This document shows, one piece after another, positions 1 to 11,153 of a stretch of 11,153 nucleotides of DNA (its first letter is position 1; each line of letters begins with the position of its first letter). The stretch covers positions 1 through 11,153 of IMG/VR virus record IMGVR_UViG_2541047938_000007; one strand, given 5' to 3'. The DNA is from a virus. Taxonomy: Duplodnaviria; Heunggongvirae; Uroviricota; Caudoviricetes. Under the pieces are notes generated by a model that saw only the letters and a list, made by a program, of their open reading frames with translations, was not told the origin of the DNA and ran no database searches. The position numbers and the translations under genes are program-made.

Positions 1-321
1 TCATATCGCTGGATTATCGTCTTCCACTGCACGGTTAATGAGATGTGTCAGAATGCCCTTCACATCCACCTCATCAAGAACCTCACCGTCAAGAACTTCA
101 CCATCTACCGTTATCAGTGCATCACCTCTACGCTTGGCAAAGTGACAGCCTCCTGAGTACGAAATCAGGTAGGTGCTATCTGGTGATGGCTTCATTCCCG
201 TTTCTATCACAGCAAACCCATGTGATGTCTCAATCACCAGGCTGTTAGCCGTGACGCCGCAGATAGTCTCTATGGTTAGCGTGCGTTCAATGTAGTCTTT
301 GGCTGGACTTGGAAACCTCAT
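1..321 (-). CDS. hypothetical protein (106 aa), distal gene of a putative SOS-regulated two-gene operon
   Basis: Complete ORF, ATG at 321..319 and stop at 3..1. Its start lies 1 nt after the stop (325..323) of the upstream 79-aa gene, suggesting translational coupling. Contains an internal DGEVLDGEVL duplication encoded by a 15-bp tandem repeat. No family recognised. Confidence 0.5.
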   Translation of the reverse strand: MRFPSPAKDYIERTLTIETICGVTANSLVIETSHGFAVIETGMKPSPDSTYLISYSGGCHFAKRRGDALITVDGEVLDGEVLDEVDVKGILTHLINRAVEDDNPAI

Positions 322-322
322 A

Positions 323-562
323 TCAAAGCCCTCCGTTCGGATTGTACATGAACCACGTCTTGTTCTCCCCGTGGTCAGGGGTGATGTCTTTGAAGCAGGT
401 GGTGTATCTGGCTATCCACTGATTTGCCTCTTCCAGGCTGAGATCCCAGTTGACGTTTAGTAGTTCCTGCACAAAATCAGCAGTTTTCACAATCCTGCGG
501 CCTGACCTTTCATGCACAATAGAGGCCCTGAAGGCAATCTCAATATCTGAACGACGCGGCAT
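323..562 (-). CDS. hypothetical small protein (79 aa), first gene of a putative LexA-regulated operon
   Basis: ATG at 562..560 preceded by GAGGTG about 7 nt upstream (minus-strand reading TTGAGGTGACTACATG). A LexA-box-like palindrome sits 22-37 nt upstream. No family recognised; not obviously DinI-like. Confidence 0.55.
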   Translation of the reverse strand: MPRRSDIEIAFRASIVHERSGRRIVKTADFVQELLNVNWDLSLEEANQWIARYTTCFKDITPDHGENKTWFMYNPNGGL

Positions 563-583
563 GTAGTCACCTCAAAATAAGCA

Positions 584-599
584 CTGTATACATATACAG
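584..599. promoter_or_regulatory. putative LexA (SOS) operator, CTGT-N8-ACAG
   Basis: Sequence cACTGTATACATATACAGca matches the E. coli LexA box consensus TACTGTATATATATACAGTA at 17 of 20 positions, with both CTGT and ACAG arms intact and an AT-rich centre. Lies in the divergent intergenic region, much closer to the 79-aa gene start (562) than to gtrA (678). Confidence 0.6.
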
Positions 600-677
600 C
601 ACATCTTATTCTGATAGTCGATCAAGTTGTCTGTTGGTGCTAAACTTCTGCCTTCTCAGAATTGACTGATTTTTCTA

Positions 678-1040
678 ATGTTAAAACTTTTTGCTAAGTA
701 CACATCGATTGGCGTACTCAACACGCTCATTCACTGGGTTGTGTTTGGTGTTTGCGTGTATGGACTATCAACAAGCCAGGCATTGGCTAACTTCGCTGGC
801 TTCGTCGTCGCAGTGAGCTTCAGTTTCTACGCTAATGCACGGTTCACCTTCAATGCTTCAACATCTACCCTGCGCTATATGCTCTATGTGGGCTTTATGG
901 GCACGCTGAGTGCTGCGGTAGGTTGGGCTGCTGACAGGTGTGGGTTACCGCCAATCGTCACACTGGTGGCGTTCTCAGCCATTAGCCTTGTATGTGGCTT
1001 TTTCTATTCTAAGTTCATTGTCTTTAGGGAAGCGAAATGA
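678..1040 (+). CDS. gtrA: GtrA, bactoprenol-linked glucose translocase (flippase) of O-antigen glucosylation systems
   Basis: 120-aa, very hydrophobic small protein with about four predicted TM segments. ATG at 678; stop overlaps the gtrB start (ATGA at 1037-1040). Size, hydropathy and sequence resemble GtrA/YfdG of serotype-converting phages (recalled). First gene of a three-gene gtr triad. Confidence 0.88.
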
Positions 1041-1948
1041 AAATTTCTCTGGTCGTTCCGGTCTTCAATGAAGAGGCCACGATACCGATTTTCTATAAAA
1101 CGGTGCGAGAGTTCGAGGGGCTAAAGCAATACGATGTTGAAATCGTGTTCATTAATGACGGAAGCAAAGACGCAACAGAATCAATTATTAATGCGCTTGC
1201 TGTTTCTGACTCGTTAGTTACCCCGCTCTCATTTACCAGGAACTTTGGCAAAGAGCCAGCTCTGTTTGCCGGGCTTGAGCACGCTACTGGCGATGCTGTA
1301 ATTCCGATTGATGTTGACCTGCAAGATCCGATTGAAGTCATCCCTCACCTGATTGAGAAATGGCATTCGGGTGCCGATATGGTACTGGCAAAACGCTCTG
1401 ATCGTTCTACTGATAGCAGGCTTAAGCGTAAGTCTGCTGAATGGTTCTACAAGCTGCACAATAAAATTAGCTCACCAAAAATTGAAGAAAACGTTGGCGA
1501 TTTTCGTCTGATGTCTCGCGAAGTTGTCGAAAACATTAAGCAATTACCAGAGCGCAATCTATTCATGAAAGGCGTTCTTAGTTGGGTTGGTGGAAGGACT
1601 GATGTCGTCGAATATGCACGTGCAGAGCGTGTCGCTGGAGATTCCAAATTTAATGGCTGGAAGCTTTGGAACCTTGCCCTTGAAGGCATTACAAGCTTCT
1701 CAACATTCCCATTACGTATGTGGACGTACATTGGATTATTTGTTGCTGGACTTTCATTCCTTTATGGCGCATGGATGATTTTAGATAAGATTCTTTTTGG
1801 CAACAGCGTTCCAGGCTACCCATCACTACTCGTTTCTATCCTGTTCCTGGGAGGCATACAACTTATAGGTATAGGGGTACTTGGTGAATACATTGGAAGA
1901 ATCTATGTGGAAGTAAAGAACCGACCGCGATATATTAAGAAAGGTTAA
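1037..1948 (+). CDS. gtrB: GtrB, bactoprenol glucosyltransferase (GT-2 family)
   Basis: 303 aa. N-terminal GT-2 features ([15 protein letters not shown], DxD-like IPIDVDLQD) and C-terminal hydrophobic helices. Translationally coupled to gtrA. Typical GtrB/YfdH size and order. Confidence 0.9.
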
Positions 1949-1952
1949 TTTC

Positions 1953-3320
1953 ATGAATATTAAGCTTGATGCTAAATTTTTATTCTTTGGTGCGCCATTA
2001 TTTTTTTATTTCCCTTTTATTATCAATGGTGTTTTATATAGAGATGATATAAATCGAGCAACAGAGAATTTTACATACTGGTCTTGGCTGGGAAGACCAG
2101 TATCAGATTTAATTTGGAAAGTCCTATCTTTAGGAGGTCAAGGACCACTCTTAGAACCATTGACGATTATATTATCTATTTTTATATTGGGTTTTTCAGT
2201 AAATCTGTTTTATCAAAAAACCAATCACTTATTTCATGACGCAGGTCCTTTTGTATATATTTTATTAGTAATATCTCCATTTTACACTCAAAATATTTCA
2301 TATCAATATGATGGCATAACGATGTCAATCGCAGTTGCATGCGCACTGATTGCCACAATTGTCACACTGAAAGAAAACTTAATATCATATTTAGTTCACT
2401 GCGCTTTGCTTGTTATAGCAATGTCAATTTATCAGACAACTCTAAATATGTTTGCAATCCTTTCTTTGGCAATTATTTTCGCGAAGACTTGCACACACAA
2501 AGCACTGCCATTGAAATATTTAGCATGCATCGCCTCATCTTTTGTTCTTGCGTTAATTTTATATAAATTTCTAATTATAGATGTATTTATTTCATCCTCA
2601 CGAAGTGACATATCACTAGACAATCTCCACACAAACTTCATTAACTTCTCATCAATTATAGCATCACCATTTAGAGGTTATTTAGTTTCAATATTTTATT
2701 GCATTGTCGCCTTATCTTTTTATTCTTTAATAAGAAAGAGAGGTGTTTTGATTGGAGTAACGTTCCTTTTCTTCTGTGTAATGGCATTCTGTTTAATTGC
2801 AGGTCCATTTATTTTACTAAAAGAAGGGATTGCAGAGCCTAGAATGTTATTAGGATTCTCACCATTTATATTTCTCTGCCTTTACCCACTTAGAGGGAGA
2901 ATCTCAACAGTATCTTCTGTGATAGTTTTTTCTGTATTTACAATAATATCTTACCAATGTGCCTCTTCAATTAAAACACAGAATGATTATGAAAAATCGC
3001 TTGCCATGCAATCCTCTCAGGAAATTATTAACGCGGTAAAGGAAAAGTCTTCAAAGGTTTATATACAAGGCGAATTTCCGCTATCAAAAATATCCAAAAA
3101 CTCTGCGGCGGATAATGAGTTCATTAACAAAATGATTGCCCCCTCCCCTTGGTATACAAGAATGTTAATTAACATTTATTATCCCGGAACTGTACACATT
3201 GATTGGAAGGGAAAATACTTATCTAGTCACGAATTAGAAAAATGCAATGTCTTAAAGAGTAATATCTTACTAACTATATATAACTGTAATAATATTACCT
3301 ACGTTGAAATTCACAAATAA
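1953..3320 (+). CDS. serotype-specific O-antigen glucosyltransferase (GtrC / type-specific Gtr family), polytopic membrane protein
   Basis: 455-aa ORF starting 5 nt after the gtrB stop. Highly hydrophobic N-terminal two-thirds with a more hydrophilic C-terminal domain. Markedly AT-rich relative to gtrA/gtrB, as is typical for the variable third gene of gtr operons. Exact type not recognised. Confidence 0.7.
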   Translation: MNIKLDAKFLFFGAPLFFYFPFIINGVLYRDDINRATENFTYWSWLGRPVSDLIWKVLSLGGQGPLLEPLTIILSIFILGFSVNLFYQKTNHLFHDAGPFVYILLVISPFYTQNISYQYDGITMSIAVACALIATIVTLKENLISYLVHCALLVIAMSIYQTTLNMFAILSLAIIFAKTCTHKALPLKYLACIASSFVLALILYKFLIIDVFISSSRSDISLDNLHTNFINFSSIIASPFRGYLVSIFYCIVALSFYSLIRKRGVLIGVTFLFFCVMAFCLIAGPFILLKEGIAEPRMLLGFSPFIFLCLYPLRGRISTVSSVIVFSVFTIISYQCASSIKTQNDYEKSLAMQSSQEIINAVKEKSSKVYIQGEFPLSKISKNSAADNEFINKMIAPSPWYTRMLINIYYPGTVHIDWKGKYLSSHELEKCNVLKSNILLTIYNCNNITYVEIHK

Positions 3321-3328
3321 ATAGTATT

Positions 3329-3351
3329 GTGCGCCGAAAAACTCGGCGCAC
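3329..3351. terminator. GC-rich hairpin between convergent gtr(type) and tailspike genes; putative bidirectional terminator
   Basis: GTGCGCCGA-aaaac-TCGGCGCAC, a perfect 9-bp stem, sits exactly between the gtr(type) stop (3318-3320) and the tailspike stop (3354-3356). Flanking U-tracts are weak. Confidence 0.45.
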
Positions 3352-3353
3352 TA

Positions 3354-5312
3354 TCATTGAGCTTGAGCCGTTAGTATTTGACCACCAGAATACGCAGTAA
3401 GACTAGTAATTTCATTAGCCAAAAGGACTTTGAACATATTTCGATCTTGACCAAATACAGCACCAGAAAAAAATGTACCAAGATTTCTATTTCCTCCGGC
3501 AGTAGGCATTCTTATAAATAAGTATGATGTTCCTTCATATGTCCCTGTAAACCAAGCATCATAATCTGCGAGAGATTGACTATCACAGTGAGCAGCTCTA
3601 ACTAATTTTGCGCGCGTAGAGATATTGCTGCCTACTGTATTAAAGTCATACGCTCCCGCTATGGGATTAAGATCTTGCCCGCTACGTAATGTATAAATAG
3701 TTCCAATGCACCCACGTCCACCATATTGCCCCCCCATAATGCGATAGTACGGACCCGCCGTTTGGTCTGGATTGGGTAGAGTCAAATCTCTACACATTGT
3801 TGTGCTAAATGTAGGAATGGTGGCCGTGCCTCCATCAAAACCGATAGTACTGAATGTTGCTGTTGTAGTATCATAAGCATTGCGCTGAGGCCACCCTGAC
3901 TCTGGTTTGTTACTATATATAATCTCAAACTTGGCACCATTTAATGTTCTAGATCTTGCCCCATTGCAAATGGTATCTGAACTACAAACCAGTTGCTTAA
4001 TGCTTACTTTTGAATAACCTGATATGTCAAACATATACGTCCCTGCAACTTGAGTTTGTGTATACAGTTGTAGGTTATTTATCTGTAAGTTTGCGCCAGT
4101 AGATTTAATTACAGTGCCATTATTATTCCTATTTGGCTGTTCACAACCTAGCGATGAAATGCTAAATGAACCACTATTAAATACAAATGGTGTACCCAAG
4201 CAATCATCTGAAGCTAGAGGTCCAACTTCACAATAAGACACTGACAATTCGAATGAACAGTAGTTTGAACGAAACACACTGCAATTTGCAATAGTGTAGC
4301 TCGTTCCTCCCTTTATAAAAAACCCTCCGTAAATTCCAGCATTATCAGATCCTTGAACAACTATATCTTTTACTGTAATAGCAACAAATGTATTACCACC
4401 AAAGTAGACACCCCACTTCATGGCGAGGATAAATAGATCACTTAATTCTTGGTAAACCGCTGTATTAGGCGTGTAATACCCATAGCTGTCTTCAGTCGTA
4501 TCAATTATCCTGAGACCGTGAATAACATTCCCACGCTTACCTTTATTATAAAACACCGCGTTCACATCCTGTGTGCTAACGCCTACTTTCCTGATTATAG
4601 ACCCCCTACCTTCACCAACAAAACGACTACCAGGTTGTTGGTAGTATAACTCATTATATACATCCTGAAGATCATATAAAATAACACTATCGGTAATAGT
4701 ATAATCTCCAACTGGAACAAAAATGATTTTACCAAACTGGGCAGACACCTTAGATGCTCTATTAAAAGCGAGTGTCCAATCAGGGTCTGAATCAAGTTTA
4801 AAATCCAATACCGAGATTAATTCAGCGTTTTTGTTATGCTGCGTTCTGCTTGCAGTCCCATCAAAAGGCTGCTTAACAGCAATAAGAGCATCTCCGTATT
4901 CAGGAGATGCCAACATCACCCTAAGAGATGAATCTCCAATGCCTACCCATGCTCCAGCGCCAACACCACCACTTGAATCTGGGGTCGAGCCTGCATTTAC
5001 AACTTTTGGAAGGTCACCATCCCAACGGTAATATTCACCGTCACCATCAGGTAACTTCCAGCGTAAAGCTTGATCAGCTTCAGTTAACGTATTGCCTTCC
5101 TGGAAGGAGTCCATCAAATTCCATCCCATGGATGATAGTTTTTCCTGATAGCGCTTTTCCATTCCATACCAGGTAAGGCGATCAACGCCGAATCTGTCTT
5201 TCCATACCTCATTTTCTTTGTCATTAGAAAGGTAGTCAAAGTTCTGAGAATTGTCGTATAAATCTTTTGCAGCAGCAGACCCCAGCGGATTGCCGGTATT
5301 ATAAGTAGTCAT
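3354..5312 (-). CDS. phage tailspike / tail fibre protein (receptor-binding protein, probable beta-helix O-antigen-recognising domain)
   Basis: 652-aa ORF, ATG at 5312..5310 with GAGG 6 nt upstream. Last gene of the minus-strand tail module, directly after the J-like gene. Gly/Ser/Thr/Asn-rich with beta-strand-like periodicity typical of tailspikes. The N-terminal about 150 aa resemble conserved anchor domains of enterobacterial prophage tail fibres (recalled, unverified). Confidence 0.65.
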   Translation of the reverse strand: MTTYNTGNPLGSAAAKDLYDNSQNFDYLSNDKENEVWKDRFGVDRLTWYGMEKRYQEKLSSMGWNLMDSFQEGNTLTEADQALRWKLPDGDGEYYRWDGDLPKVVNAGSTPDSSGGVGAGAWVGIGDSSLRVMLASPEYGDALIAVKQPFDGTASRTQHNKNAELISVLDFKLDSDPDWTLAFNRASKVSAQFGKIIFVPVGDYTITDSVILYDLQDVYNELYYQQPGSRFVGEGRGSIIRKVGVSTQDVNAVFYNKGKRGNVIHGLRIIDTTEDSYGYYTPNTAVYQELSDLFILAMKWGVYFGGNTFVAITVKDIVVQGSDNAGIYGGFFIKGGTSYTIANCSVFRSNYCSFELSVSYCEVGPLASDDCLGTPFVFNSGSFSISSLGCEQPNRNNNGTVIKSTGANLQINNLQLYTQTQVAGTYMFDISGYSKVSIKQLVCSSDTICNGARSRTLNGAKFEIIYSNKPESGWPQRNAYDTTTATFSTIGFDGGTATIPTFSTTMCRDLTLPNPDQTAGPYYRIMGGQYGGRGCIGTIYTLRSGQDLNPIAGAYDFNTVGSNISTRAKLVRAAHCDSQSLADYDAWFTGTYEGTSYLFIRMPTAGGNRNLGTFFSGAVFGQDRNMFKVLLANEITSLTAYSGGQILTAQAQ

Positions 5313-5326
5313 ATGGGCCTCATTAA

Positions 5327-5348
5327 CAAAAAACCTGCCAATGCAGGT
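5327..5348 (-). terminator. putative intrinsic terminator/attenuator between the J-like gene and the tailspike gene
   Basis: On the minus strand ACCTGC-attg-GCAGGT (6-bp stem, 5333-5348) is followed by UUUUUUG (5332-5327), then the tailspike RBS and ATG. Confidence 0.45.
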
Positions 5349-5369
5349 TAATGGAGATGTTATTAGTGA

Positions 5370-7592
5370 TTAAGAAATGTTGCCGGGGTAAGTGGCATTA
5401 TCATATTGATAGAAAGAGTCGCGATATTCTTTGGCTGTTACCTGACATGTTCCGTCAGACTGCGGTGATATCTCTGAGATTAGTGCACTGTAACCAACAC
5501 GTGAAGATTCGCAGAATATAAGACGTGGAGGTTCTATCGATTGATCATTCAGTATGATGCCAATGAACTCATCCTGTTCAGATACCGATAGTTCATAATC
5601 ACTAACTTTAGTAACTGGAAGCAGACCAGAAGCTGATCCATCCTGGTAGCGAATCAATGCGCGAGGATTGTTGAATGTCCAGTCAAGAGGCTCTGAAACT
5701 GTGAATGTCGTTACGCCGCCACTCGTACTCATATCATCGATCAATGTGCTTATTGTTTTGCTACCAGGAATGTCATCAGTAAACACAATTCTGTCACCTA
5801 CGCTATAGCAAAGTGCATCCATTTCCGTGGTCGTTGTATGGGTAAGACGCTGCTGCCTGTACTTCATCAGTCGTCGCATACCTATCTGATAAGCCCTGTC
5901 CTGGTCAAGAACACCATCAAGATCGTAATCTTCTATTTTCACTGGCGTAGGATTGTCAGACGTTCTGCACTGAACAGTCTCTTCAGCCCACGTAGTGCCG
6001 TTAATGTAAGTGACATCCACTCCATCATAATCATCGGCTGATGGTGCAACGAAGGCCGTTTGAAGCGCTTCTGTCATTTCCTGCGGACTAATTATTCCCG
6101 TCCACGTTTTTACCCCCTCCCTTCCCACTGAAGCCATACCGTCAGACAGCAGAAAATAGCTTTTACCTGCGTTAGTGACTTTCTGTAGCATTTCAAGCGC
6201 GGAAACTGAGTCGGTTGTTGCGTAATCGAAAAACTCGCTATCAGGCGTCCAGTAAGATGATTCCAGCATATCAATCACTTCGTTATCCATCGCAAGCCCT
6301 AACTCATTACCAATGTGGTAAAGCGCGCCTGAAATGCTCCTGGAAATACCGGAATCATAAATGCGTGTGGCGACTACGTTGACACGGCGATCAGACTGAG
6401 CGGCAAGCTTTCCACCTGTTTCGACTGAGACAGCCATAGTGGTTACACCAGAGTATGATGATGGTCTTGAAAGCAACCTCCCCCTTAATGACTGCCAGTA
6501 CATGTTATCCCTGCTGTTATCCTGGCCTTGTTCGTTCGTTCTCCTGCATCTAACCTCCACCAAACCGGCCGATGCCAGCGTGATACGTTCGGTAAAACCT
6601 AACCCATTAATATTTTGCTGATTGTAAGACCCAGTTTTGCTTGTCCATCCTGAACCCGAACCGTAAACACGGTACTGAATTTCCCACTGAACAATCCTGT
6701 TCTGCTTCTTGCCTTTCTTGTTATACCCGCAAATACCGTTAGCCAGGTCAACAACGCCGCCAACCAGGTCAGTTAGTCCCTGAATCACCTGAGGGTCTTT
6801 GAAAACATCGCCCATGTCAGTGATCGCATTCTGTAATCCTGACAGGTCAACATTTGCAAGACCGGTAGCAATCTCAATTTTTACGCCGTTAACCTGCGTC
6901 TCCATGTCTTCAAACAGGGAGTTTACTTTCACCAGTTTTTCGATGTCTGCATCATCAGGGGCAACACCAAACTGCTTTGCCGCGTCCATGTACTGGCGAA
7001 GCTTTTCACCACCCTGATCAAGTAAGGGCAGGAGCTTTGACAGGTCATTACCAAGGCTTTCGAGAATGGTTGTTTTTTCGGCGTTTGTTTTTATCTTACC
7101 AAGAGCATCGCTGATAGCGAGAAGTTGTTTATCAGGTGACTCACCGGCTAATTTTTTTGCGGATAATCCAAGCGCATCAAGCGCACCGACAGCTTCACCA
7201 GATTTATTTAAGACCGCATCACCAATCTTATCGCCAATATCTTTAAAGATATCGGCCATCTGGTCACCAGATACCCCAGCCTTTTCGGCTGCATACTGCC
7301 AAGCCAGCAGAGACTGAGTAGACATATTGAGCGACTTAGCCCAACGGTCTGTTTCAGTGATCTGTTTGGAAGTGGTTTTCAGCAGGTTATAACCAGCAAC
7401 GCCTACACCAATTGCCGCAGCGCTTGCTGCTGTCGCAAAAGCGGTGAACGCGGTGGCCGCAGCCTTGGCGTCGGATTGTACCTGTTTACGCCATTTTTGA
7501 GATGCTCGCTCAGACTGGCTTAGGCCAGAGACAAAACCACCAACCTTAGCAACAAGGTCGATAGTCAACGTGCCGAGGGATTTACCAGCCAT
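5370..7592 (-). CDS. tail protein: tape-measure-like N-terminal region fused in frame to a host-specificity (lambda J-like) region
   Basis: 740 aa. ATG at 7592..7590 lies 1 nt after the stop of the GT frameshift product, the expected tape-measure position. Residues 1 to about 290 are Ala/Lys/Gly-rich and coiled-coil-like, typical of a tape-measure N-terminus. From about residue 300 there are J-like motifs (LRGRLL...PSSY; AYQIGMRRL...FSVGDRIVFTDD; PPRLIFCESSRV), aligned by eye to the central part of lambda J. Confidence 0.65.
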   Translation of the reverse strand: MAGKSLGTLTIDLVAKVGGFVSGLSQSERASQKWRKQVQSDAKAAATAFTAFATAASAAAIGVGVAGYNLLKTTSKQITETDRWAKSLNMSTQSLLAWQYAAEKAGVSGDQMADIFKDIGDKIGDAVLNKSGEAVGALDALGLSAKKLAGESPDKQLLAISDALGKIKTNAEKTTILESLGNDLSKLLPLLDQGGEKLRQYMDAAKQFGVAPDDADIEKLVKVNSLFEDMETQVNGVKIEIATGLANVDLSGLQNAITDMGDVFKDPQVIQGLTDLVGGVVDLANGICGYNKKGKKQNRIVQWEIQYRVYGSGSGWTSKTGSYNQQNINGLGFTERITLASAGLVEVRCRRTNEQGQDNSRDNMYWQSLRGRLLSRPSSYSGVTTMAVSVETGGKLAAQSDRRVNVVATRIYDSGISRSISGALYHIGNELGLAMDNEVIDMLESSYWTPDSEFFDYATTDSVSALEMLQKVTNAGKSYFLLSDGMASVGREGVKTWTGIISPQEMTEALQTAFVAPSADDYDGVDVTYINGTTWAEETVQCRTSDNPTPVKIEDYDLDGVLDQDRAYQIGMRRLMKYRQQRLTHTTTTEMDALCYSVGDRIVFTDDIPGSKTISTLIDDMSTSGGVTTFTVSEPLDWTFNNPRALIRYQDGSASGLLPVTKVSDYELSVSEQDEFIGIILNDQSIEPPRLIFCESSRVGYSALISEISPQSDGTCQVTAKEYRDSFYQYDNATYPGNIS

Positions 7593-7593
7593 G

Positions 7594-8237
7594 CTATGTC
7601 CACTCCTGCATAGCCTGTTCCAGTGAAATGGAAGGCTCGTTAATGTGTGGTGTGAAGTCTGTTACTTTGAAGTGGGGTGAATCTTTTCCACGGTTGACGT
7701 TTGCCAGCACAGAAGAAATTAGGCCAGCGGCCCACTCGGTACGCATCATTCCGTTAAGGCTTCCGTACTTTTGACGGTAAAGAACCCAGTCGCGATACTC
7801 TGTAACGCTAACGCGTTCTTTTGCTTCAGCAATGGTGCGGCCGCCGATCCCGTTGAGAACTAATTCACACCAGAATTCGTCGTCTGCGCTGAGTTCGCCT
7901 TTCCCAGGTCGTTAACCTGCTGAATAGCGACAAGCAGAGCAACCGTAAGAGCACCATCGAGTGCGCCGCGCTCAGGATCTGCTTCACCAGTGATATCGGC
8001 AACAGTGAAAACTGGAGCGCCATTTTCATCACAGATGGATGCAGCGATACGCCCTGCTACACCATCAATTTTCCCCACCGCTGAAAGAACATTTGATACC
8101 GCGTCGTGATAACCCATTGGTCGGATATAAACGGTAGCTGTGATCTCTTTATCGCCCTGCTTCCAGGTGATTTCCTTCTCAACAGGACGACCAGTAAACG
8201 CCCCTGCCTGTTTTAACGAATCCAGATTCAGTTTCAT
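7594..8237 (-). CDS. tail assembly chaperone G-T fusion made by programmed -1 ribosomal frameshift
   Basis: The -1 frame stays open from the heptamer GGGAAAG (7905..7899, minus strand) for about 100 codons to a TAG at 7596..7594, which ends 1 nt before the next gene's ATG. This is the same arrangement and the same heptamer as lambda G/GT. Confidence 0.6.
7860..8237 (-). CDS. tail assembly chaperone (lambda gpG analogue)
   Basis: 125 aa, ATG at 8237..8235 with GAGAGGAAAG upstream. Sits immediately upstream of the tape-measure-like gene. Contains the slippery heptamer G GGA AAG 13 codons before its stop. Confidence 0.75.
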   Translation of the reverse strand: MKLNLDSLKQAGAFTGRPVEKEITWKQGDKEITATVYIRPMGYHDAVSNVLSAVGKIDGVAGRIAASICDENGAPVFTVADITGEADPERGALDGALTVALLVAIQQVNDLGKANSAQTTNSGVN

Positions 8238-8254
8238 TTCTTTCCTCTCAGTTT

Positions 8255-8270
8255 GCGGGGTTTCCCCCGC
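8255..8270 (-). repeat. GC hairpin copy 1 (mRNA sense GCGGGG-gaaa-CCCCGC), between the major-tail-like ORF and the G gene
   Basis: 6-bp stem with a GNRA-type GAAA loop on the late transcript, followed by the RBS and ATG of the chaperone gene. Identical core to the copy at 8943-8960. Confidence 0.5.
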
Positions 8271-8287
8271 TTATTAATGCCTGGTTA

Positions 8288-8689
8288 TTAGCTCGTTGGT
8301 TGGGCCTTTGGAACCCAAACACCTTGCCCTGAACGCTGAATGGTTGCGGAAGTTTGCACGACCGTATTCGCCTGGAAGTCGAACGGGAAATCTGAAACAT
8401 AACCCTGGAATACATACCAGGTACGTGTATCCGGCAGAGAAAGACCATCAACTGCATCTGGATCACCAGACGTCGCTACCGTTGGTTCATCCGTTCCGTC
8501 AGCCCAGCCAATAGCGAAGGTCAGGTTTGTCTGGTCACTGGATTCAGCCAGGTTGCTCAGCATTACATGGCTGGAGTTTGCCGGGTCTGCGTTAAGAGCT
8601 ACAGTAGCCTGACCGGGGGTGCGCAGACCTTTTTTGTAGGAACGAGTATTGGTTTCACTCAGACAGGTATCTTCAATCTGGTCTGACAA
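8288..8689 (-). CDS. major tail protein-like ORF, possibly 5'-truncated (lambda V position)
   Basis: 133-aa ORF in the ORF track that actually starts at a TTG with no convincing RBS. Occupies the position just upstream of G/GT, and has weak by-eye resemblance to the lambda V core. It is in the same frame as the upstream 56-aa ORF, separated by a single TGA. May be a remnant rather than an intact gene. Confidence 0.4.
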
Positions 8690-8764
8690 AGGAAAATATC
8701 GGAGTCCAACCGCGAGATGATGGTTGCTGTAGTGCTTTCTCTTTCCGTCTAAAAGGATTCCACA

Positions 8765-8935
8765 TCAGCCATTCTCCGCGTTTTCTTTTTTACTTTTACG
8801 CACCACTGCTTTTTTGCTGGTTACGTATTCCGCCTTTTTCAGCAGAACCAGCACCTTTGCGCACTGGTCATTCACAATTTTCTCATCACCTGGCAATGAG
8901 TCATGTGTACGCTGAAGGTATCTGATTTTTGCCAT
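8765..8935 (-). CDS. small Lys-rich hypothetical ORF (56 aa)
   Basis: ATG at 8935..8933 sits 5 nt after the hairpin at 8943-8960. A strong SD-like GAAGGAGG lies immediately upstream of that hairpin. Not in the supplied ORF track (shorter than 60 aa). Coding status uncertain. Confidence 0.3.
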   Translation of the reverse strand: MAKIRYLQRTHDSLPGDEKIVNDQCAKVLVLLKKAEYVTSKKAVVRKSKKENAENG

Positions 8936-8942
8936 TTGAAAT

Positions 8943-8960
8943 GGCGGGGTTTCCCCCGCC
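8943..8960 (-). repeat. GC hairpin copy 2 (mRNA sense GGCGGGG-gaaa-CCCCGCC), between the structural-gene fragment and the 56-aa ORF
   Basis: 7-bp stem with GAAA loop, same core as copy 1. On the mRNA it is flanked by GAAGGAG upstream and an AUG 5 nt downstream. Confidence 0.5.
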
Positions 8961-8967
8961 CTCCTTC

Positions 8968-9468
8968 TTAGCTGGTTGAGCCAGTGCTGTAATCCACGTC
9001 AGAGATAACGGCTACGGCTGCATCACGGCGACGCTTCCAGTTAATCCAACGCTCGGCACGGATTGCCACGCTGTTGGTCTGGAACATAGACACCAGTTCA
9101 ACTGGAGTTGGCGTTGTGCTGTCGTGGGTCGGATCGCTCTGCATTTCCAGAGAAGCTTCGCGAGACATATCAACGGCGACGCCGCCATCATCTGCCAGAT
9201 AAACATCTGGTGCGTTAACCAGTACCAGTTGGTTGCCAACGTACTGTGAAACGATCACCGGCAAGCCCTGGAACGTACCGCCCAGCATGGTCATATCTGG
9301 GTATTCTTTCTGACCAAGCGCGTTTTTACGCATAGACAGAGTAAGTGCCGTAGTGCTGGACATCAGCCATACCGCACCATTCGGCTGCAGGTTGTTCGTA
9401 ATGAACTGACCAAATGCTGCAGAAGCATCAGTACAGGCTAACCATGAGCATAGTTCGATGTCACGCGT
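8968..9468 (-). pseudogene. 5'-truncated phage structural gene fragment (capsid or head-tail protein-like C-terminal part)
   Basis: The reading frame is open from 9468 down to the TAA at 8970..8968. The annotated ATG at 9363 has no RBS and is probably an internal Met. The fragment runs head-on into the 5' end of the integrase fragment. Family assignment is tentative. Confidence 0.4.
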
Positions 9469-10057
9469 TTACAGGTGGGGATATCAACGTGGATTTGTGC
9501 CAGGCAACCCATGCGTAGGCGTCGATAAATACCCTAAACCTCAGCGCGACCGATACATTACGGATGAAGAGTATTTAGCGATTTATGACTGTGCTACTGA
9601 TCCGGTCAAAGCAGCAATGGAAATTGCTTATCTCTGTGCCGCCAGGGTTTCCGATGTTCTGAAAATGGACTGGAATCAGATAATGGATAAAGGAATTTTC
9701 ATTCAACAGGGTAAAACTGGAGTTAAGCAGATTAAAGCGTGGACAGACCGTTTGCATTCAGCAGTCAATCTTTGCAGGAAATCAGGGGAAGATGGCGCTG
9801 TCATCAAAACCATGTACGGAGAGCGATATTCCTATAAAGGTTTCAATGAAGCCTGGAGAAAGGCGAGAAATGCGGCTGCTGAAAAAATTGGCAGACCGTT
9901 AGACTGCACGTTCCATGATCTGAAGGCGAAAGGCATTTCTGACTATGAAGGAAGTGGCCGCGATAAGCAAAAATTCAGTGGTCACAAAACTGAATCACAG
10001 GTGCTGGTATACGACAGGAAAGTAAAAATCAGCCCAACTTTGAACAGAAAAATGTGA
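9458..10057 (+). pseudogene. tyrosine recombinase (phage integrase), C-terminal catalytic-domain fragment, 5'-truncated
   Basis: 199-aa ORF with catalytic-domain features (AARVSDV Arg region, HDLKAKG, GHKTESQVLVYDR with the C-terminal Tyr). Lacks the N-terminal arm-binding and core-binding domains; there is an in-frame stop at 9407-9409 just upstream. It is transcribed toward the 3' end of the adjacent tRNA, as expected for an int next to attL. Confidence 0.8.
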
Positions 10058-10069
10058 GTTTGAGATACA

Positions 10070-10099
10070 GCGCCGGGTGCAAATCTGGCGTTATTTTTT
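10070..10099 (+). terminator. putative Rho-independent terminator downstream of the integrase fragment
   Basis: Stem CGCCGG / CTGGCG (one G-U pair) with an 8-nt loop, followed by TTATTTTTT, starting 13 nt after the int stop. Confidence 0.5.
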
Positions 10100-10126
10100 C
10101 TCAGTGGATTTTCTCATTTTTTCTCA
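10093..10126. repeat. direct repeats ATTTTTTCTCA (x2, plus a third TTTTCTC) between int and the tRNA 3' end; candidate att-arm/IHF-type sites
   Basis: ATTTTTTCTCA at 10093-10103 and 10116-10126, with TTTTCTC also at 10109-10115. Located in the expected attL arm region. Function not demonstrable from sequence. Confidence 0.3.
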
Positions 10127-10172
10127 ACGGGATGTTGGTCACTGAATCGAAACACTGTAAGTGCTTGAATGG

Positions 10173-10262
10173 TGGCGGAGAGAGGGGGATTTGAACCCCC
10201 GGTAGAGTTGCCCCTACTCCGGTTTTCGAGACCGGTCCGTTCAGCCGCTCCGGCATCTCTCC
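10173..10262 (-). tRNA. serU: tRNA-Ser (anticodon CGA)
   Basis: The minus strand reads GGAGAGATGCCGGAGCGGCTGAACGGACCGGTCTCGAAAACCGGAGTAGGGGCAACTCTACCGGGGGTTCAAATCCCCCTCTCTCCGCCA (90 nt). It has a 7-bp acceptor stem, anticodon stem CCGGT/ACCGG with loop CUCGAAA (anticodon CGA), a long variable arm, a T-loop GGTTCAAATCC, and an encoded CCA. Confidence 0.9.
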
Positions 10263-10355
10263 GTTCAGATGGTTGCCATGATGCCAGGAAATTTGGCATT
10301 TTAACAGTCCCTGTCCGTGCAATTTTGTTCAAGTGACGAGTTTGCGAGCAAAACG

Positions 10356-11153
10356 ATGATTAAGTGGCCCTGGAAAGTACAAGAATCAGCACATCAAACT
10401 GCCCTTCCCTGGCAGGAAGCACTATCGATCCCCCTTTTAACGTGTCTGACGGAACAGGAACAAAGCAAATTAGTCACTCTTGCCGAACGTTTTTTACAGC
10501 AAAAGCGGCTTGTTCCTTTACAGGGCTTTGAACTGGATTCATTAAGAACCTGCCGGATAGCACTTCTATTTTGCCTACCCGTTCTGGAATTAGGACTGGA
10601 ATGGCTGGATGGTTTTCATGAAGTCTTAATTTATCCTGCGCCATTTGTGGTCGATGATGAATGGGAAGACGATATCGGTCTGGTGCATAACCAACGTATT
10701 GTTCAGTCAGGTCAGAGCTGGCAGCAAGGGCCTATCGTTTTGAACTGGTTGGATATACAAGATTCTTTTGATGCTTCTGGTTTTAACCTGATTATTCATG
10801 AAGTCGCTCATAAGCTGGACACCCGTAACGGCGATCGCGCCAGCGGAGTTCCCTTTATTCCGTTGCGTGAGGTTGCTGGCTGGGAACACGATCTTCATGC
10901 TGCAATGAACAACATTCAGGAAGAAATCGAATTGGTTGGCGAGAATGCGGCGAGCATTGATGCTTATGCTGCCAGTGATCCTGCTGAATGTTTTGCCGTA
11001 CTTTCTGAATATTTCTTTAGCGCCCCAGAACTTTTTGCTCCTCGTTTCCCTTCATTGTGGCAACGTTTCTGCCAATTTTATCAACAAGATCCTTTGCAGA
11101 GACTGCATCACGCTAATGATACAGACTCGTTTTCGGCGACGAATGTTCATTAA
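10356..11153 (+). CDS. mtfA: MtfA (Mlc titration factor A), zinc-dependent peptidase
   Basis: 265-aa ORF from the ATG at 10356 (MIKWPWKV...); the ORF-track start at 10317 is a GTG extension. Contains the HEXXH zinc-peptidase motif ([10 protein letters not shown]). Matches E. coli MtfA/YeeI as recalled. Complete, with TAA at 11151-11153. Confidence 0.9.

Follow-up and report, generated by a model that had tools for sequence, protein, structure and literature searches.

The window analysed here is an 11,153-nucleotide stretch of viral DNA (positions 1 to 11,153 of IMG/VR record IMGVR_UViG_2541047938_000007), and its central feature is an intact gene on the minus strand (3354..5312) that encodes a 652-aa phage tailspike and converges on a gtr operon within an otherwise decayed prophage. 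The protein is a real phage tailspike, because it combines an N-terminal anchor and a beta-helix fold with a place directly after the tail-tip gene TipJ and with receptor-binding relatives in real phages; the earlier note on this DNA, which had proposed a tailspike from the sequence, was therefore right about its identity. The same note had suggested that its survival reflects either selection for the host or a very recent deletion. We consider that the tailspike is most likely an unused passenger in a recently deleted, dead prophage, and place the probability of this explanation as a whole at about 0.75; comparison of sister copies favours very recent, ongoing decay, not selection on the tailspike. 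The entire window is identical to part of contig KE702357.1 (GCA_000461255.1) of Escherichia coli UMEA 3329-1, where the element lies between yodB/zinT and mtfA.

A full-length tailspike gene with a beta-helix receptor-binding part

The tailspike gene, its two parts and the signal upstream of it are as follows; L014 denotes the complete relative of the prophage in strain 23CRST032.

3354..5312, minus strand: intact tailspike gene, 652 aa, WP_021571325.1 (open reading frame list, Pfam, PHROG, structural model, relatives and exact match)
3354..4894, minus strand: exchangeable receptor-binding part, codons ~140-652, with the beta-helix at ~196-470 and a C-terminal beta domain at ~504-649
4895..5312, minus strand: N-terminal tail-anchor region, codons 1 to ~139, including Tail_spike_N at residues 69-127 (Pfam, PDB match and L014 homology)
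5332..5349, minus strand: terminator-like hairpin and T-run in the spacer from the TipJ stop to the tailspike ATG (sequence)

The open reading frame (ORF) begins with ATG, preceded by GAGG 5 nt upstream, and a stop-free run of 652 codons has a chance expectation of ~3e-20 at the local base composition (41% GC). Comparison with relatives confirms that the product is full length: P0001 (657 aa) covers 100% of it, and P0084 (68% identity) is aligned through residue 651. Both the ORF coordinates and the lengths of the relatives thus agree with the earlier description of an intact 652-aa reading frame that converges on the gtr operon. Two plus-strand ORFs antisense to the gene (4723-5031 and 4928-5176) are taken as chance ORFs. 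Upstream, the stem of the 5332-5349 hairpin carries paired base changes that preserve pairing in L002, a partly deleted relative, and do so in part in L014, and the hairpin therefore looks conserved, across this phage family, just ahead of the tailspike gene. No promoter-like site was seen in the 57 bp that separate the end of TipJ from the tailspike start codon.

The N-terminal region is a separable virion-attachment domain, held in common with L014 while the remainder of the protein is swapped. Pfam places Tail_spike_N (PF18668, the TSP1/gp66 adaptor domain) at residues 69-127 (E = 1.4e-16), and residues 1-142 match the N-terminus of gp13, a tail protein of solved structure (PDB 9occ; E = 1e-30). 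Identity to the N-terminus of the L014 tailspike is 54% over residues 1-264; DNA homology to that gene picks up again at 4921, and the N-terminal region has a GC content of 45%. The head-binding domain of P22-type (Lederbergvirus) phages, PF09008, gave no match in the window protein even at E ≤ 10, in comparison with 1.3e-58 for P0084. The window tailspike thus has a receptor-binding part in common with P22-type tailspikes, yet is not itself P22-type. Neither a signal peptide nor a hydrophobic stretch is present at the N-terminus in the tailspike sequence.

The AlphaFold2 model has a mean predicted local distance difference test score (pLDDT) of 77.8, which rises to ~90 across residues 170-470, and comprises an N-terminal domain, a long series of short beta-strands (196-470) that forms a central right-handed parallel beta-helix, and a C-terminal beta domain (504-649). 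When the model was compared with the PDB using Foldseek, the top 46 matches were all phage tailspike, tail-fibre or depolymerase structures, led by CBA120 TSP3 (6nw9, E = 1e-12) and followed by TSP1 (4oj5), TSP4 (5w6h), Sf6, HK620 and Klebsiella and Acinetobacter depolymerases. At the level of sequence, P0084 scores above the Pfam threshold for the PF12708 pectate-lyase-like beta-helix, and the window protein itself matches phrog_21710 (function unassigned) together with tail-fibre and tail-spike PHROGs. The structure prediction and the homology search that the earlier note had called for therefore both came out in favour of a tailspike, with matches to receptor-binding proteins and none that was clear to a non-receptor-binding protein. 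The genomic position agrees: the gene occupies the distal position in the tail module, directly 3' of the TipJ remnant, as it does in L014, L002, L011 and L012.

Prophage deletions and sister copies

The deletions in the window were mapped using L014 as the reference. This complete relative encodes terminase, a 645-aa capsid protein, portal, connectors, tube (165 aa), chaperones and tape measure (841 aa), and continues with three small tip proteins, TipJ (905 aa), a tailspike (698 aa), a convergent gtrC-gtrB-gtrA operon, a 79-aa ORF and a HumD-like gene. Both L014 and L002 have the gene order of the window and are 75-92% identical to it at the DNA level in gtrA/gtrB, TipJ, tape measure, chaperones, tube and capsid; they differ in carrying their own gtrC genes and receptor-binding parts (on 698-aa and 783-aa tailspikes). 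Whereas L014 is complete and lies at icd, L002 is partly deleted and occupies the same tRNA-Ser site as the window. Against this reference, three deletions account for a total loss of ~35 kb and leave the features below.

5370..7592, minus strand: in-frame fusion ORF, 740 aa, joining tape-measure residues 1-284 to TipJ residues 448-905 through a 4.36-kb deletion (junction ~6740)
7594-7749, minus strand: tail assembly protein T
7860-8237, minus strand: tail assembly chaperone
8288-8689, minus strand: tail-tube gene without its first 33 codons, keeping residues 34-165
8968..9363, minus strand: C-terminal 131 codons of the 645-aa major capsid gene (residues 515-645)
9458..10057, plus strand: C-terminal 199-aa stub of a tyrosine integrase (PF00589)
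10158..10262, minus strand: tRNA-Ser(CGA) (10173-10262) and 76-bp attachment (att) core repeat (10158-10233), the prophage boundary by mtfA

The exact tape-measure::TipJ chimera occurs on 4 contigs only, and its product carries the RefSeq label 'TipJ family' protein. The second deletion took out 4.07 kb between tube codon 33 and the beginning of the portal gene, and its junction (8682-8685) lies in a TCTG microhomology. At the third junction (~9433) the capsid end is joined to the integrase stub, everything from capsid to int having gone. A second copy of the att repeat is located just left of the window (L001/L002 5986-6062). This mapping substantiates the statement that the integrase and capsid genes are truncated and the tape-measure gene fused, and, with tape measure and TipJ joined in one frame, the remnant is not a functional prophage or tailocin. 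Between 5370 and 10057 there are no genes for lysis, terminase or a repressor.

The search for the whole remnant covered 5,426 complete E. coli genomes, none of which contains the form present in the window; near-identical DNA was found only in CUWW10 (L001), where the prophage has been cut down differently. Over the ~4.7 kb of prophage DNA that the two have in common a single base differs (4240), and it produces G358V in the window tailspike. Residue 358 is glycine in every other copy of the lineage, including the 652-aa form on 25 contigs (P0122 being the common 652-aa variant), and in 17 of 19 relatives; the change, which is private to this strain, may impair folding of the beta-helix. In CUWW10 an IS1 insertion sequence (IS) interrupts the tailspike at codon ~205, and all DNA between that IS1 and int is missing. 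Its integrase at the same site has 329 aa, compared with 385 aa for the integrase of a related site and with the 199-aa stub, which is present on 59 contigs. As integrase lengths and IS1 and deletion events differ on near-identical DNA, the window and CUWW10 remnants were reduced independently.

Disruption of the tailspike extends beyond CUWW10. The IS1-cut form is present on at least 10 contigs, and other members of the cluster end at residues ~375 and 588. P0002 (465 aa) and P0123 (400 aa) were considered as the products of two events, which was rejected: the additional N-terminal residues of P0002 arise by read-through out of the IS1 end, and both are CUWW10-type copies. A parallel case is provided by a P22-like remnant at argW (intS, gtrA stub and tailspike), in which the tailspike is intact in MB06022 (640 aa) and has been cut by an IS3 to a 226-aa stub in S43. 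Further IS1 copies were observed in CUWW10 (L001/L013), one in gtrB and one in wzx, the flippase gene of its O160 O-antigen cluster, and these hits fit a loss of O-antigen that would make the gtr operon and its neighbour dispensable.

The gtr operon, the exchangeable cassette and the receptor

The operon on which the tailspike gene converges consists of three genes, followed by a hairpin.

678-1040, plus strand: gtrA (PF04138; PHROG GtrA)
1037-1948, plus strand: gtrB (PF00535, GT2 bactoprenol glucosyltransferase; PHROG GtrB)
1953-3320, plus strand: gtrC (PF14264; PHROG GtrC)
3329..3351, no strand: GC-rich, terminator-like hairpin with a 10-bp stem between the convergent stops

All three genes (678..3320) are full length against their PHROG families, and GtrA, GtrB and a serotype-specific GtrC are thus encoded in one operon within an att-bounded prophage; gtrABC is predicted from these families to be an O-antigen glucosylation (serotype-conversion) cassette. 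Its gtrA and gtrB genes are 87-89% identical to those of other gtr loci, whereas gtrC has been replaced. A gap of 33 bp separates the stop codons of gtrC (3320) and the tailspike gene (3354), and each of the relatives examined has its own, different hairpin at this junction. A Dam/OxyR phase-variation signature, which marks a subset of gtr operons that includes many Salmonella loci, was sought 5' of gtrA, and paired GATC sites were not found within 563-677, which holds a single GATC (620).

The pairing of gtr with a convergent tailspike, which the earlier note had presented as the classic logic of serotype conversion, is the usual arrangement in this phage family and has been described before for P22 and BTP1: it recurs in L014, L002, L005 and L012, and in P22-like phages (PMC4413052). 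A cognate serotype specificity of the gtr-tailspike pair is plausible on these grounds. The chromosome of UMEA 3329-1 was also observed to carry a second int-gtrA-gtrB-gtrC/tailspike unit (L005), in a P22-like prophage at argW on KE702357.1, ~430 kb away, in which gp16 is split by an IS21-family element. The receptor-binding part of its tailspike is 68% identical to that of the window and its GtrC just 28%, and the strain therefore possesses two distinct gtr operons along with a pair of related tailspikes.

The receptor-binding part (residues ~140-652) has relatives in phages of diverse kinds. Identity to this part is 76-78% in numerous E. coli tailspikes of 640 aa with the P22 head-binding domain, 73% in the post-TipJ tailspike of a siphovirus that has a DNA polymerase A gene, 70% in a gp17-type tailspike (738 aa) from a T7-like phage and 65% in a further tailspike convergent with gtr, and a full-length relative at 38% identity is encoded by Salmonella phage SKML-39 (160-kb genome). 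Related receptor-binding parts are accordingly joined to four kinds of N-terminal adaptor, namely Tail_spike_N, the P22 head-binding domain, a T7 tail type and a further siphoviral type. These relationships are seen at the protein level only among 50,697 phage records, in which a megablast search with the tailspike DNA returned zero matches.

In DNA alignments, the phage relatives cease to match the window at ~1906-1918 (the end of gtrB) and match again from ~4846-5157 (the linker after the N-terminal domain of the tailspike). Within these limits lie gtrC, the hairpin and the receptor-binding part, a segment with a GC content of 32-40%, compared with 44-53% in the flanks (gtrC 32%, the receptor-binding part 40%, gtrA/gtrB 44-48%). 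Judged by these alignments, gtrC and the receptor-binding part are a low-GC, replaceable cassette bracketed by conserved gtrB and the conserved N-terminal domain of the tailspike, a pattern that, read in the same way, is the familiar modular exchange of receptor-binding domains.

Co-inheritance of gtrC and the receptor-binding part as a matched pair was considered separately and rejected, as related receptor-binding parts also stand beside an unrelated GtrC or none. The neighbours found for this receptor-binding family are a GtrC of 28% identity, an STM0557-type GtrC or a 63-bp gtrA stub, with three unrelated GtrC types overall. The P22-like tailspikes of WL164, MB06022, S43 and 3CM (L017, L018, L022 and L023) all adjoin the identical 63-bp gtrA stub, which implies that the gtr operon was already deleted in that phage type.

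The O160 O-antigen, which contains a phosphodiester (PMC7685785, PMC9912281), is the leading candidate for the receptor, and a likely one. CUWW10, the sole complete genome with near-identical remnant DNA, has an O160 O-antigen cluster. O160 occurs in 16 of the 5,426 complete genomes and in 3 of the 6 that carry DNA like this receptor-binding part (hypergeometric P = 4e-7, or 7e-5 without CUWW10, with kinship of the strains ignored). CUWW10 and UMEA 3329-1 have runs of consecutive RefSeq numbers in common, both for the remnant (WP_021571320-326) and for the his and O-antigen cluster region (338-345). A strict tie of the receptor-binding family to a single O serogroup was considered and rejected: O160 is enriched, yet O159 and another cluster also occur. 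MB06022 is O159, with a frameshifted wzy, the cluster of CH468 is a different one, of mannose type, and S43 belongs to a type other than O160.

Explanations for the intact gene and comparison with known systems

In the explanation we favour, the tailspike gene closes the late (tail) operon of an HK97/lambda-like siphovirus, which had integrated at tRNA-Ser(CGA) by mtfA. Residues 1 to ~139 would anchor the protein to the TipJ tail tip, and residues ~140-652 would, in the living phage, have bound and probably cleaved a host surface polysaccharide, most likely an O160-type O-antigen. The convergent gtrABC operon would act as a lysogenic-conversion module that modifies the O-antigen and blocks re-adsorption of phages with such tailspikes. 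Three microhomology-type deletions have left the prophage dead, with the loss of regulation, replication, lysis and packaging functions, most of the head and the tail-tip genes. The tailspike would still be intact because decay proceeded by large deletions and IS hits, not by point mutations, because that decay is very recent, and because the gene is at the prophage edge, against gtr, the part that the host may actually use. As the protein has neither a signal peptide nor a hydrophobic stretch, and the lysis genes are deleted, the tailspike has no route to the cell surface; it is probably not expressed and would probably have no function for the host.

Several points weigh against this account or parts of it. 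The AlphaFold2 model is of a monomer and was built on an alignment of only 20 sequences; the acidic residues D271, D369, E391 and D429 are invariant in the helix, and no catalytic residues were identified and no active site was assigned from these four. That the O type of UMEA 3329-1 is O160 is suggested solely by the RefSeq numbers in common with CUWW10. The receptor-binding DNA of MB06022 (O159) and CH468 (mannose-type cluster) is 71-73% identical to that of the window, as close as in the O160 strains. Expression may come from read-through from upstream or from a weak internal promoter, and the intact 652-aa form is present on at least 26 contigs and so has survived some clonal expansion.

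The last of these points also speaks for a rival reading, in which the host retains the tailspike by selection, as a low-level O-antigen depolymerase that trims unmodified chains (GtrC shielding the modified ones) or acts on neighbouring cells. The tailspike is full length while all other structural genes are truncated, a second decayed prophage (MB06022) has an intact tailspike adjoining int, and in Salmonella D23580 the BTP1 tailspike shortens the O-antigen unless GtrC is present (PMC4413052). BTP1, however, is an inducible, lysing prophage and not an equivalent case, whereas in the window the route to the surface, the late promoter and the tail partners have all been lost, a terminator-like hairpin lies directly upstream and the spacer has no promoter-like site. 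The only substitution is nonsynonymous and falls on a conserved glycine, and IS1 and IS3 have cut the CUWW10-type copies and the S43 counterpart, respectively. Host selection is thus very unlikely. Of the two options in the earlier note, it is the recent deletion that gains from the comparison, through the one base in ~4.7 kb and the different events in CUWW10, and host selection that loses, through G358V, the IS cuts, the missing signal peptide and the loss of late promoter, lysis and tail functions. A more elaborate version, in which the gtr-tailspike pair is a two-gene 'O-antigen editing' unit that outlives decay, is the least probable of the explanations and distinctly speculative: both genes would be host-selected, low expression would bring the tailspike to the surface by sporadic lysis or in vesicles, unmodified O160 chains of the cell itself or of its neighbours would be trimmed and modified ones protected by GtrC, and phrog_21710 would be the first depolymerase for a phosphodiester-containing E. 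coli O-antigen.

A benefit at the level of the phage is also improbable, if somewhat less so. The remnant would then be a recombination reservoir, from which phages of the same family acquire the gtrC and receptor-binding cassette through conserved flanks (the 3' end of gtrB on one side, the tailspike N-terminal domain and TipJ on the other). Both the low-GC segment bracketed by the two limits of homology and the four adaptors on which related receptor-binding parts are found agree with such transfers, but they account for the origin of the module and not for its intactness, as a silent chromosomal copy is free of selection between rare recombinations; no recombinant traceable to this copy was seen. 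A different doubt concerns the receptor, which could be another O type, a capsule, colanic acid or the enterobacterial common antigen, with adjacency to gtr being mere conserved phage gene order. The close relatives in O159 and mannose-type strains and the occurrence of this receptor-binding type beside three unrelated GtrC proteins or a deleted gtr operon lend this some weight. It is nevertheless unlikely, given the strong enrichment of O160 among carriers and the two related receptor-binding parts in one chromosome, each beside a gtr operon; moreover, strains often swap their O-antigen cluster once lysogenic, and MB06022 has only a remnant and a frameshifted wzy. That the tailspike is an unused passenger in a recently deleted prophage thus remains the explanation that we prefer.

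Three known systems come closest to this locus. P22 (gtrABC/gene 9) and BTP1 (gtrC/STMMW_03901) likewise have a gtr operon and a tailspike that converge at the att-proximal end of the prophage (PMC4413052), and their GtrC modifies the O-antigen recognised by the tailspike of the same phage; for BTP1 it has been demonstrated experimentally that GtrC protects the O-antigen from the convergent tailspike of its own prophage (PMC4413052). Tailspikes of E. coli P22-like prophages are 68-78% identical to the receptor-binding part of the window. In contrast to P22 and BTP1, however, the N-terminus in the window lacks PF09008 and has PF18668, and the parent phage is a TipJ-bearing siphovirus; in contrast to BTP1, the prophage is not inducible, and the interplay of tailspike and GtrC has no obvious route. 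The tailspikes of CBA120 and G7C (TSP1-4 and gp66) resemble the window protein in combining the Tail_spike_N adaptor with a beta-helix, TSP3, TSP1 and TSP4 being its best Foldseek matches. Structural alignments with the solved structures of this type give only 9-18% sequence identity, and those phages carry a branched set of tailspikes on a myovirus or podovirus, whereas the window encodes a single tailspike of a temperate siphovirus.

The cryptic prophage CPS-53/KpLE1 of E. coli K-12 carries intS, yfdGHI (= gtrABS) and tail-fibre remnants. It resembles the window as a decayed prophage at a tRNA gene that has kept its integrase end, a gtr cassette and tail-fibre remnants, and the argW remnants of MB06022 and S43 are of this same kind. 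The K-12 tail-fibre genes are already pseudogenes, whereas the window tailspike is full length, and the site and phage family differ.

These results leave current understanding unchanged, and the protein is an ordinary addition to the known tailspikes. Its uncharacterised receptor-binding family, phrog_21710, occurs in coliphages both temperate and lytic, with four or more tail types among them, and probably targets the rare, phosphate-containing O160 O-antigen. The tailspike could be cloned as a serotype-specific binder or depolymerase, for which the common G358 form would be preferable to V358. The locus is also a cleanly dated snapshot of prophage decay, in which independent deletions and IS hits have fallen on otherwise identical DNA, and it serves as a reminder that an intact gene within a remnant need not mean selection. 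It further illustrates how gtrC and a receptor-binding part can be exchanged as a cassette between gtrB and the N-terminal domain of the tailspike.

Beyond the gtr operon lies the left end of the prophage.

1..598, minus strand: left prophage end with UmuD/HumD-like ORFs at 1-321 and 323-562 (phrog_3469; gene order as in L014 and L002)

A perfect LexA-box-like palindrome, CTGTATACATATACAG, is located at 583-598, in the divergent spacer between the UmuD/HumD-like ORFs (minus strand, 562..1) and gtrA (plus strand, from 678). The SOS response may control the umuD-like genes and could affect the gtr promoter region. At the opposite end, mtfA (10317-11153) differs from its counterpart in L001 at 9 of 837 bases, in contrast to the one base in the adjoining 4.7 kb of prophage DNA; either the same phage entered two backgrounds independently, or mtfA was exchanged by recombination. 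CUWW10 additionally carries a yersiniabactin island at the neighbouring tRNA-Asn.

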